From assembly GCA_037133755.1 (NCBI GenBank), contig JBAXNN010000008.1, forward strand, positions 30,245 through 94,244: 64,000 bases of DNA. Direction: 5' to 3'. Positions 1,457 to 6,209 of this stretch are shown in pieces. Source of the stretch: Thermoleophilia bacterium. Its GTDB lineage: Bacteria; Actinomycetota; Thermoleophilia; Gaiellales; F1-60-MAGs149. The notes under the pieces were generated by a model. That model did no database searches. It saw only the letters and a list, made by a program, of their open reading frames with translations, and was not told where the DNA came from. Within the stretch, counting starts at the first letter, position 1, and each line of letters begins with the position of its first letter. Made by a program: the position numbers and the translations under genes.

Positions 1457-2395
1457 CTACTTCTTGGCTCCGTCGCGCGCCTGAGCGTGCTGGAAGCCGA
1501 AGCGGCCCTTGATGCAGAGGTTGCCGTGCGTGATCGAGTGCTCCGGCGGGCTCGTGACCTTGACGATCGAGTTGTCCTGCACGTGCAGCTCGAGGTTGCA
1601 GCCGACGCCACAGTAGGTGCAGATCGTCGTGGTGACCGTCTGCTCCTCCTCGCGCCACTCGCCCTCCTCGCGGAGGTCGTGCTCGCTCTTGAACATCAGG
1701 GCGCCCGTCGGGCAGACCTGGATGCAGTTGCCGCAGTAGACGCAGGCCGACTCGGGCAGCGGGACGACGAACTCGGTCGAGATGCGCGCATCGAAGCCAC
1801 GGCCCGCGACGCTGATCGCGAACGTGTTCTGCCACTGCTCGCCGCACGCGTCGACGCACTTGTAACAGAGGATGCACTTCGAGTAATCGCGCATGTAGAG
1901 CTCGTTGTCGATCTTCTTGCCCTGGTAGACCGTCGCGGCCAACTGGCCATCGGTCTCGGCGCTGTGGCCGGCGCGATGGTGGTCACGATGGGTGTCCGGC
2001 GGGGCCTGCGGACCGAACTTCTCGGGCCGGGCGTCGTACGCCGCGAGGTACTCGGGCGCGACCGACGTCGTCGAAAGGTCCACGCTCGAGGCAAGCAGCT
2101 CGAGCACCATGCGGCGGCTCGCGCGGACGCGCTCGGAGTTCGTGTGGACCTTCATGCCGGGCTCGGCCTTGCGCGAGCACGAGGGCTGCAGGACGCGGGC
2201 GCCCTCGACCTCGACCACGCAGACGCGGCAGGCGTTCTTGGGCGCAAGCGTCTCGCCGAAGCACAGGGTCGGCGTCTCGGTGCCGACCTTGGTGATCGCG
2301 TCGAGCAGCGTCTGGCCCTCGAAGACCTTGACGGCCTGGCCGTCGATCTCGAGCTCGACCATCCGCTTGGGGGTCATCATCACGGGATCGCTCAC
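1457..2395 (-). CDS. NuoG-like Fe-S subunit of formate dehydrogenase; ends with the molybdopterin-oxidoreductase FS0 4Fe-4S domain (N-terminal fragment of a split FdhA/FdsA)
   Basis: Part of ORF 1457..2620. The likely start is GTG 2395, which has GGAGG 6 nt upstream and overlaps the upstream TGA; ATG 2380 is the alternative. Motifs: 2Fe-2S region TLCFGETLAPKNACRVCVVEVEG..QPSC; ferredoxin motifs CILCYKCVDAC and CVYCGNCIQVCP; then TICTYCGVGCNLELHV..GNLCIKGRFGFQH, followed by a stop. Confidence 0.82.
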   Translation of the reverse strand: MSDPVMMTPKRMVELEIDGQAVKVFEGQTLLDAITKVGTETPTLCFGETLAPKNACRVCVVEVEGARVLQPSCSRKAEPGMKVHTNSERVRASRRMVLELLASSVDLSTTSVAPEYLAAYDARPEKFGPQAPPDTHRDHHRAGHSAETDGQLAATVYQGKKIDNELYMRDYSKCILCYKCVDACGEQWQNTFAISVAGRGFDARISTEFVVPLPESACVYCGNCIQVCPTGALMFKSEHDLREEGEWREEEQTVTTTICTYCGVGCNLELHVQDNSIVKVTSPPEHSITHGNLCIKGRFGFQHAQARDGAKK

Positions 2396-4251: not shown

Positions 4252-6209
4252 TAGTCGCCCGCCACCAGTTCGCGGTCGGCGTAGGCGGTCATGGTCTGCT
4301 CGCCCTTGGCGAGCTTCTCGACCTTGATCGCGCAGGCCTTGAACTCGGCGGTGCCACTCTTCTCGTCGACGGCGTCGATCGTCAGCTGGTTCACGTCGAC
4401 CTGGTCGGGGAAGTGGAACGTCATGAAGCCAAGACCAGGACGCAGCCGGACGTCGGTGCGGACCGGCGACTCGACGGTGCCACGGCGCGAGGAGACGCGC
4501 ACGATCTCGCCGTCTTCGAGGTTCATGCGCTCCATGTCCTCGGGGCACAGCTCGAGGAACTCGCCGGCGTGCAGCGGGCTCGTGAACTTCTCGGTCTGGA
4601 CGCCCGTGTTGTACGACTCGAGGCGACGACCCGTGGTGAGACGGATCGGGAACTCGGCGTCGGTCGCCTCGAACGGCGGGCGATCGTGCACCGGCACGAA
4701 CGGCGCGAGCATGCCCTGCACCGGGTCGGCCCAGAGACGCTCGTGCAGACGCGGCGAGCCAGCGTGGCCCTCCTCGGGGCACGGCCATTGGATGCCACCG
4801 AGCTCCTCGAGCCGCGCGTACGACATGCCGGTGTGCATCGGCGAGAGCGAGCGCAGCTCGTTCCAGATGTCCTCGCTGGTCGGGTAGTTCCAATCGAAGC
4901 CCAGGCGCTTGGCCAGCTCGGTGAGGATCCACTGGTCGTCCATGGCCTCGCCCGGCGGGTCGAGCGCCTTGCGCACGCGCTGGACGCGACGCTCGGAGTT
5001 CGTGACGGTGCCGTCGGACTCGCACCACGAGGCAGAGCCCGGCAGGATCACGTCGGCGAGCTCGGCCGTCTTCGTCGCGAAGATGTCCTGCACGACAAGG
5101 AAGTTGAGGCCGCCCAGCAGGGTGCGGATGCGGTTCGAATCGGCGTCGGACTGGGCCGGGTTCTCGCCGATGATGTAGCAGTACTTCAGCTCCCCGGTCT
5201 CCATGCCGTGGAACATCTGCGTGAGGTGCCAGCCGTAGCGATCACGGATCGGCACGCCGTAGGCCTGCGAGAACTTCTCGCGTGCCTCGTGGTTGTTCTC
5301 GATGTCCTGGAAGCCCGGCAGGCGATTCGGGATCGCGCCCATGTCGCCGCCGCCCTGCACGTTGTTCTGGCCGCGCAGCGGGTTGAGGCCCGAGCCGTAG
5401 CGCCCGACGTGGCCGCAGAGCAGGGCCAGGGAGATCAGGCTGAGGACGTTGTCGACGCCCGTGTGGTGCTCGGTGATACCGAGCGTCCACGAGATCATCG
5501 CGCGGTCGGCCTTGGCGTAGGCGTGGGCGACCTCGCGGATCGCCTCGGCCGGTACGCCGGTCAGCTCCTCGGCACGCTCGAGCGTGTACTCGGCGACGTG
5601 CTTTCGATAGTTCTCGAAGTTCTCCGTGGAGTGCTCGATGAAGGCCCTGTTGGCGAGACCCGCTTGGATGATCTCGTTGGCCATGGCGTTGGCGAGGGCG
5701 ATGTCCGAGCCGACGTTATTGCCGAGCCAGATGTCGGCCCACTGGGCGGTCTCAGAACGGCGGGGATCGACGACGAAGAGCCGCGCACCGTTGTGAATGC
5801 CCTTGAGGACGTGATGGAAGAAAATCGGATGTGCGTTGCGGGCGTTCGAGCCCCACAGCAGGATGACGTCGGTGTCGTGATACTCCTCATACGAAGAGGT
5901 TCCGCCACCCGCTCCAAAGACAGTCGCCAGACCGACGACGCTAGGAGCGTGTCAAGTTCTGTTACATGAGTCGACGTTGTTCGACCCCATCACCTGACGG
6001 GTGAACTTGCCGGCGAGGTAGTTGACCTCGTTGGAGGCCTTCGAGCACGAGAACATGCCGTAGCTCTTCGATGTGTCGAGGTCGCGCGCAGGCGCGAGGC
6101 CGGCGGCGGCGTAATCGAGCGCCTCCTCCCAGCTGGCGGGTCGGAACTCGCCGTTCTCCTTGATCCATGGGTGCGTCAGGCGCCCCTTGGGCAGTTTCGT
6201 CGTCGTCAT
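4251..6209 (-). CDS. fdhA: Formate dehydrogenase catalytic (molybdopterin) subunit, selenocysteine-containing; lacks its own FS0 domain
   Basis: ORFs 5952..6527 and 4251..5684 join in frame across TGA 5954..5952: ..NNVDSCNRT-U-HAPSVVGLATVFGAGGGTSSYEEY... ATG 6209 (MTTTKLPKGRLTHPWIKENGEFRPASWEEALDY) has GGAGG 9 nt upstream. Typical MopB and C-terminal barrel blocks are present: NPLRGQNNVQGGGDMG, IGENPAQSDAD, LTTGRRLESYNTG. Confidence 0.88.
5911..5954 (-). ncRNA. Sec UGA codon plus bacterial SECIS-like stem-loop inside the fdhA mRNA
   Basis: The mRNA reads UGA CAC GCU CCU AGC GUCGUC GGUCU GGCGAC UGUCUUU GGAGC. The upper 6-bp stem (5939..5923) closes a GGUCU loop that starts 12 nt after UGA. 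The lower stem pairs GCUCC with GGAGC. Register and loop resemble the E. coli fdhF SECIS core. Confidence 0.7.

Follow-up and report, generated by a model that had tools for sequence, protein, structure and literature searches.

The window, a 64,000-nt stretch of DNA from a soil bacterium of the Thermoleophilia (contig JBAXNN010000008.1), carries near one end an operon that probably encodes a formate dehydrogenase with its alpha subunit (FdhA) divided between two proteins. Four tightly packed genes occupy the minus strand from 6209 to 592, and a fifth follows them and is clipped by the window edge. In the order of the coding strand, these are the catalytic fragment of FdhA (fdhA-C, 4251..6209, 652 codons including one for selenocysteine), with the predicted site for the Mo/W-bis-pyranopterin guanine dinucleotide (bisPGD) cofactor; a diaphorase gene formed by fusion of NuoE and NuoF (NuoEF, 2392..4251, 619 aa); the Fe-S fragment of FdhA (fdhA-N, 1457..2395, 312 aa); fdhD (592..1452, 286 aa; PF02634, E 1e-64), for a sulfurtransferase/chaperone of the Mo cofactor; and the N-terminal part of moeA (1..595; MoeA_N, E 2e-33). 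An earlier note on this DNA had read the same order, with the N-terminal piece of FdhA encoded downstream of the C-terminal piece, and the Pfam matches confirmed it.

The TAG stop codon of fdhA-C and the GTG start codon of NuoEF share one base (TAGTG). The fdhA-N gene also starts with GTG, which is preceded by AAGGGAGG, and its overlap with the NuoEF stop codon reads GTGA. The genes for the C-fragment, NuoEF and the N-fragment are translationally coupled. The stop codon of fdhA-N is a TAG at 1459-1457, and fdhD starts 4 nt further. In a related locus (L001), fdhD was called likewise, and moeA there was full-length.

The Fe-S fragment contained Fer2_4 at residues 11-87, two ferredoxin-type 4Fe-4S motifs at 170-233 (Fer4_7 and Fer4_Nqo3), and Molybdop_Fe4S4, the domain of the [4Fe-4S] cluster FS0, at 253-304. 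The 2Fe-2S region, the two 4Fe-4S motifs and the FS0 motif that the earlier note had recognized in this protein were thus all borne out by Pfam. The [2Fe-2S] and the two ferredoxin-type [4Fe-4S] make up a NuoG-like module, which aligned to FdsA 15-250. All 16 cluster Cys ligands were invariant in the fdhA-N family. The four FS0 ligands (C259, C262, C266 and C294) are all on this fragment, and K296, the Lys after the last FS0 Cys, was nearly invariant in the family. The protein ends 9 residues beyond KGRFGFQH, not 10 as had been counted before.

One cluster of the FdsA type was missing. None of the ligands of cluster A4 in FdsA (His117, Cys121, Cys124 and Cys130) was conserved in fdhA-N in the alignment to FdsA, and PF10588, for the His-ligated cluster, gave no Pfam match in fdhA-N. 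The A4 motif (HxxxCxxCxxxxxC) was also missing from the nearest fused relative, P0227. In the R. capsulatus enzyme (RcFDH), A4 is at the dimer interface and off the pathway from the bis-molybdopterin guanine dinucleotide (bis-MGD) to the flavin mononucleotide (FMN) (PMC7171172). A break in the electron chain by the loss of A4 was considered and rejected on this ground, since the loss of an off-pathway cluster would leave the chain unbroken.

Just past the region where FdsA binds A4, fdhA-N carries a conserved His/Asp-rich insertion (PPDxxRDxxRxGHHxxPDGxxAATV; residues ~129-161, window 1913-2011, minus strand). P0121 and P0127, which are the most divergent of the split members, do not have this insertion.

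The catalytic fragment matched PF00384 from the first profile position (residues 10-435, profile 1-353), together with PF01568. PF04879, the Molybdop_Fe4S4 profile of the FS0 domain, was not found in it by Pfam. The in-frame extension upstream of fdhA-C, which runs towards the LysR gene, contained no CxxCxxxC, as the earlier note had stated. Nor did any of 73 related loci have the motif in frame ahead of the C-fragment. The profile alignment that the note had proposed gave the same picture: no FS0 cysteines on the catalytic protein, and all four on the N-fragment. The active-site motifs of fdhA-C are U-H (read as NRT-U-HAPSV) and PLRGQNNVQG with its conserved Arg (read as NPLRGQNNVQGGGDMG). 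Formate dehydrogenases such as FdhH are marked by the pair of Sec/Cys and His and by this Arg (Sec, selenocysteine). No twin-arginine translocation (Tat) signal was visible at the N-terminus of fdhA-C, which suggested that the enzyme is probably cytoplasmic. The best matches in PDB were FdhF of the hydrogen-dependent CO2 reductase (HDCR; 7qv7, E 2e-154), 7bkb, FdhH (1aa6) and FdsA (6tg9). A formylmethanofuran dehydrogenase chain (5t5i_B) was matched as well.

The breakpoint was located by three alignments. Against R. capsulatus FdsA (6tg9_A), fdhA-N residues 6-308 corresponded to FdsA 15-307, and fdhA-C residues 10-631 to FdsA 308-932. Against the 672 positions of TIGR01591, the two fragments covered 1-52 and 51-672, respectively, and against the fused relative P0227 (904 aa) they covered 3-272 and 271-890. 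All three agreed with the previous suggestion that the catalytic protein starts right after the FS0 block. Judged from these alignments, the split falls exactly at the boundary between FS0 and domain II, and FS0 and the Mo site are predicted to be on separate proteins, fdhA-C being without FS0.

TIGR01591 is the NCBIfam equivalog profile for Fdh-alpha. The C-fragment scored 659.9 bits (E 3e-198), under the curated cutoff of 666.25, and fdhA-N scored 52.3 bits over positions 1-52. What keeps the C-fragment under the cutoff is its lack of profile positions 1-50, which are on fdhA-N.

The NuoEF fusion matched PF01257, PF01512, PF10531 and PF10589, for a [2Fe-2S] thioredoxin-like domain, an FMN/NAD(H) site, an SLBB domain and a [4Fe-4S]. 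Its matches in PDB were of the NuoF family, including FdsB (6vw7_B) and the FdhB fusion of M. extorquens (7e5z_B, 572 aa). Pfam found no extra ferredoxin domains of the bifurcating HydB type in it; the protein ends with PF10589.

An in-frame TGA (5952..5954, minus strand) stands at the Mo-ligand position of fdhA-C (DSCNRT-U-HAPSV in translation), where it would be read as Sec. In the related loci this codon was TGA in 58 and TGC or TGT in 15. The Cys-type carriers included cultured Lentzea, Amycolatopsis, Streptomyces, Umezawaea, Herbidospora, Thermopolyspora and Actinoallomurus. Gene callers cut the catalytic gene at the TGA, and in public assemblies it appears as pieces of ~82 aa and ~516-544 aa.

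Folding and conservation together identified the upper stem-loop of a Sec insertion sequence (SECIS), a stem of 7 bp under a GGUCU apical loop, at 5921..5940 on the minus strand (wider element 5899-5957). Each of the 50 distinct Sec-type loci preserved all seven pairs of the upper stem. The GGUCU loop was invariant in these loci, although it coincides with synonymous sites in Gly-Leu codons. The 15 Cys-type loci encode the same residues; there, 69.5% of the cells pair, no stem was complete, and five loop variants were present. A compensatory change from C-G to G-C, by two synonymous substitutions each, was found in three loci (L050, L054 and L086). At z = -0.67, the folding energy of the hairpin is ordinary for its G+C content.

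A lower helix drawn from the single-sequence fold was rejected for want of support in the alignment: pairing is seen in 79.7% of the cells, with columns 12/45 unpaired for the most part. We limited the SECIS claim to the upper stem-loop. With its TGA and the conserved SECIS hairpin, the catalytic gene is predicted to be a selenoprotein gene. The apical loop of the E. coli fdhF SECIS is also GGUCU. E. coli FdhH is similar in having UGA at the Mo-ligand position, then His, and the hairpin directly downstream. In contrast to fdhA-C, FdhH is a monomer of 715 aa that has FS0 in its own chain and belongs to formate hydrogenlyase.

The exact 312-aa fdhA-N, with the same junctions and neighbors, was present in three independent assemblies (Logan, ENA and JGI). 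More than 120 protein clusters of 297-321 aa had the same architecture as fdhA-N, at 73-93% identity, and the names on these clusters, where given, were Gaiella and Gaiellaceae. A scan with one genome per species matched at least 600 genome stretches. The locus counts are from the best 80 of these, with the gene order taken by tblastn.

The order C-fragment, NuoEF, N-fragment (C-EF-N) on one strand was found in about 70 of the best 80 loci, and in nearly every locus with enough upstream DNA. The split without the permutation (EF-N-C) was found in none of the 80. Of 73 informative loci, about 70 had the three genes together. The earlier note had raised the case that the 1457..2395 protein belongs to an unrelated NuoG-type complex; this is unlikely in view of the coupling and the co-occurrence of the genes. 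The metagenome-assembled carriers of C-EF-N were Thermoleophilia, Gaiellales and Solirubrobacterales. Cultured carriers were Lentzea, Amycolatopsis, Streptomyces, Micromonospora, Umezawaea, Herbidospora, Thermopolyspora and Actinoallomurus, and further ones were Comamonas badia, Hyphomicrobiales, Acidobacteriota and Gemmatimonadales. The order was also seen in closed or near-closed genomes, and the most divergent of the split members recovered (53% identical) kept it too. The placement of fdhD differed by locus (upstream, downstream or absent), while the three-gene core was constant. The survey of relatives that the note had called for thus recovered the same breakpoint and order across phyla, and the layout is common, with hundreds of species sharing it, and not peculiar to the window.

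On plasmids (PLSDB), only fused fdsA/fdhF genes were found, at <36% identity. In a search of representative proteins, where fragments predominated, four short proteins (P0224, P0239, P0242 and P0247) were tried as extra split forms and rejected: they are fused FdsA-like proteins clipped by gene callers at their own Sec codon, with ends in NVDxCAR. Metagenomic fused FdsA-like proteins that are clipped in this way in the databases are easily taken for short Fe-S proteins.

In a rough neighbor-joining tree of the N-terminal part, the split forms made one clade with 81% bootstrap, and the fused P0227 was its weakly supported sister. The gene order at P0227 is nuoE-nuoF-fdsA. Opening the cycle of nuoE-nuoF-fdsA at the junction between the N- and C-terminal parts gives C-E-F-N. 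This indicated a circular permutation at the level of the operon. The permutation preserves the cyclic order of nuoE-nuoF-fdsA. We infer that the split and permuted form arose once, in a fused ancestor that had no A4, and that the cassette then crossed phyla. The route may have been a tandem duplication with loss of the ends, or a circular intermediate that was re-opened. The earlier note had overlooked this cyclic order, as well as the Sec codon with its SECIS, the loss of A4 and the commonness of the layout.

We consider it highly probable that the three genes specify a cytoplasmic, NAD+-linked, Sec-containing Mo/W formate dehydrogenase of the FdsABG/Fdh1AB (complex-I N-module) type, made of three polypeptides, with FS0 supplied in trans. 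By homology to RcFDH, formate would be oxidized at the Mo/W-bisPGD center of the C-fragment, with Sec as the ligand and the adjacent His and the conserved Arg beside it. The electrons would leave through the FS0 [4Fe-4S] and the neighboring Lys, both on the N-fragment. Since these are on the N-fragment, its C-terminal ~55 residues would have to dock on the C-fragment, completing domain I across the subunit interface. Domain I of FdhH is formed in its structure by three segments, the FS0 segment among them. Here, domain I would be assembled from two chains. The electrons would next pass through the two ferredoxin-type [4Fe-4S] and the [2Fe-2S] of the N-fragment and arrive at the NuoE/F fusion, with its [4Fe-4S] and FMN, for the reduction of NAD+. 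FdhD and MoeA would mature the cofactor. The complex itself, the preference for NAD+ and the physiological direction towards formate oxidation are likewise those expected by homology.

Several observations weigh against this reading, or parts of it. The C-fragment scored 518 bits against 7qv7, which is of the monomeric FdhF type, but 422 bits against FdsA. With this higher score, simple fission of one FdsA-like gene is unproven, and the split form may have originated by recombination of two ancestral genes rather than by fission of one. The Rfam model SECIS_3 gave a full-length match starting at the UGA, but at only 16.6 bits (E 0.63; gathering score 63). Within the 64-kb window there were no sel domains among the scanned open reading frames and no tRNA-Sec. 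Three loci (L048, L065 and L077) carry the EF-N pair (~5050-7940 in each) with no catalytic fragment within ~7 kb, which suggested that the Fe-S/diaphorase pair may not be dedicated to one partner. The genes upstream of the pair are unrelated ones, for a WS/DGAT (wax ester synthase/diacylglycerol acyltransferase) acyltransferase in L065 and for a ketopantoate reductase in L077. In the Actinoallomurus iriomotensis locus (L047), two tandem C-fragment paralogues (1138-3015 and 3140-5035), 81% identical, lie upstream of a single EF-N pair, and the copy at 3140-5035 is of the Cys type.

The unpaired EF-N loci and the A. iriomotensis paralogues leave room for a modular reading. The FS0-bearing N-fragment and NuoEF could be a plug-in electron-exit module, which would complete domain I of any FS0-less catalytic subunit, the two paralogues and unlinked partners in the three loci being examples. 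The order C, EF, N would then enforce the assembly, with the cofactor-loaded catalytic piece made first and the diaphorase wired last. We hold this possibility to be rather unlikely. If true, it would be the first Mo-bisPGD enzyme with the proximal cluster as a separable, exchangeable subunit. In a rival reading, the pair would be not half of a dedicated FdhA but a general FS0-bearing diaphorase adaptor for exchangeable FS0-less catalytic subunits, linked or unlinked. The same four loci speak for such an adaptor. However, about 70 of the 73 informative loci keep a single C-fragment directly upstream, with overlapping stop and start codons, and the EF-N pair was not seen next to FS0-less molybdoenzymes of any other kind. 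We regard the general adaptor as unlikely.

A different objection is that there is no functional enzyme, the split being a misassembly, a rearranged pseudogene or a frameshift. The catalytic reading frame is indeed broken by TGA and called as two pieces, and the C-fragment is just below the TIGR01591 cutoff. However, the junctions are the same in the three independent assemblies, and the order recurs in dozens of species and across phyla, which excluded the misassembly that the earlier note had wished to see checked. All cofactor ligands are conserved as well, and the TGA is at the Sec position, with a constrained SECIS and with Cys codons in the relatives. This leaves the artefact practically no probability. 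The enzyme could also be real and three-part, but with a role other than NAD+-linked formate oxidation, such as CO2 reduction, the use of NADP+ or another substrate. Enzymes of the RcFDH type are reversible (PMC7171172), and nucleotide specificity was not readable from the sequence analyses here. The C-fragment is strongly, though partially, similar to assimilatory nitrate reductases (NasC, E 1e-126), but Fdh-alpha (TIGR01591) was by far its best family match, and its Sec/Cys-His pair and conserved Arg are those of formate dehydrogenases. Furthermore, fdhD is linked in many loci, and the neighboring genes are for one-carbon (C1)/methylamine catabolism, which yields formate. We consider such a different role very unlikely.

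The split NAD+-linked formate dehydrogenase proposed here is closest in its modules to FdsABG(D), from R. capsulatus (6tg9/6tga) and Cupriavidus necator (6vw7). The cofactor modules are the same, from the bis-MGD catalytic domains, FS0, the two ferredoxin-type [4Fe-4S] and the N-terminal [2Fe-2S] to the NuoF-like subunit with FMN and [4Fe-4S] and the NuoE-like [2Fe-2S] module; FdhD/FdsC is a partner in both, and the N- and C-fragments together tile FdsA 15-932. FdsA, however, is one chain of 958 aa, which is here cut at 307/308. The locus further differs in the missing A4, the fusion of NuoE and NuoF, and Sec instead of Cys as the Mo ligand. The order is G-B-A there and C-EF-N here, and no fdsD was seen at the locus. 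The tungsten enzyme FDH1 of M. extorquens (Fdh1AB; 7e5z/7vw6) is also NAD-linked, with a beta subunit that is a NuoE/NuoF fusion and an alpha subunit with a NuoG-like N-terminus. It has two genes, and Fdh1A is one polypeptide of ~990 aa with its own FS0. As far as sequence can tell, the locus has every functional module of the FdsABG/Fdh1AB type, and lacks two structural features of it, the single FS0-containing alpha chain and cluster A4.

Separate polypeptides have been found before in two other settings. In formylmethanofuran dehydrogenase, the single well-known example of such a division, the formate-dehydrogenase-like Mo/W-bisPGD catalytic unit is on two polypeptides, FwdB and FwdD (FmdB and FmdD) (PMC7331816). 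There, the break separates domain III from domain IV, at the C-terminal cap, and FS0 stays with FwdB. Here, the break comes after the FS0 segment at the N-terminus, and the piece with FS0 is joined to a NuoG-like Fe-S module. In HylABC-FdhF2 and HDCR, the catalytic subunit and the NuoG/HydA-like Fe-S subunit are separate and work with NuoE/F-like subunits, but FdhF retains FS0; the alignment with 7qv7 starts at chain residue 62, past FS0. The NuoF homologues of bifurcating enzymes have extra Fe-S domains, and the present NuoEF has none. With such a NuoEF and with a C-fragment without FS0, the predicted enzyme does not fit the electron-bifurcating HylABC-FdhF2 or Bfu type.

The earlier note knew of no description of a split at this position combined with this permutation. 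Searches of the open-access literature likewise yielded none, neither for an FdhA with FS0 in trans nor for the order C-EF-N, which does not prove that none exists. The layout is apparently undescribed. Its commonness makes it less rare, yet leaves this status unchanged. To our knowledge, the cluster in Mo/W-bisPGD enzymes with FS0 is always within the catalytic polypeptide. The first electron step here, from the pterin to Lys to FS0, would have to cross a subunit interface, which makes the enzyme a natural experiment on the modularity of this step. The minimal catalytic subunit of ~650 aa is a natural design of interest for the engineering of CO2 reduction. The locus also offers a clean case of operon-level circular permutation plus gene fission, with a single apparent origin and a spread across phyla. 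It is notable for specialists in molybdoenzymes and in the evolution of gene order, and of use for annotation; the predicted chemistry is the same as that of known NAD-linked formate dehydrogenases.

Public databases name the N-fragment "2Fe-2S iron-sulfur cluster-binding protein" or "NAD-dependent formate dehydrogenase iron-sulfur protein". The RefSeq name of the C-fragment is the generic "molybdopterin-dependent oxidoreductase", because the C-fragment misses the TIGR01591 cutoff and the Sec codon breaks the gene calls. The split type of formate dehydrogenase is thus systematically under-annotated. Since soil Thermoleophilia and other Actinomycetota carry the enzyme in abundance, the formate-oxidizing capacity of soil communities is probably under-counted.

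Upstream of the operon, a LysR-type regulator gene is divergent from fdhA-C (6321..7202, plus strand; HTH_1 and LysR_substrate). The 111 bp between them (6210-6320) are, from the spacing, the presumed shared promoter region. A LysR gene is in the matching position in another locus (L004), and the operon is probably regulated by the divergent LysR.

Within 15 kb of the operon, domain scans found genes for an MttB-family methyltransferase (trimethylamine/betaine type), a large aminomethyltransferase with a GcvT domain, and two FAD amine-oxidase/DAO proteins (11124-12602, plus strand; 15348-17351 and 18396-20961, minus strand). From its context, this apparent methylated-amine/C1 catabolic neighborhood could be a source of formate for the operon. 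The sole tRNA of the window is tRNA-Lys(UUU) (29021-29091, plus strand). Two tandem genes for Kup-type K+ transporters (K_trans and K_trans_C; 7225-9114 and 9161-11110, minus strand) adjoin the LysR gene.

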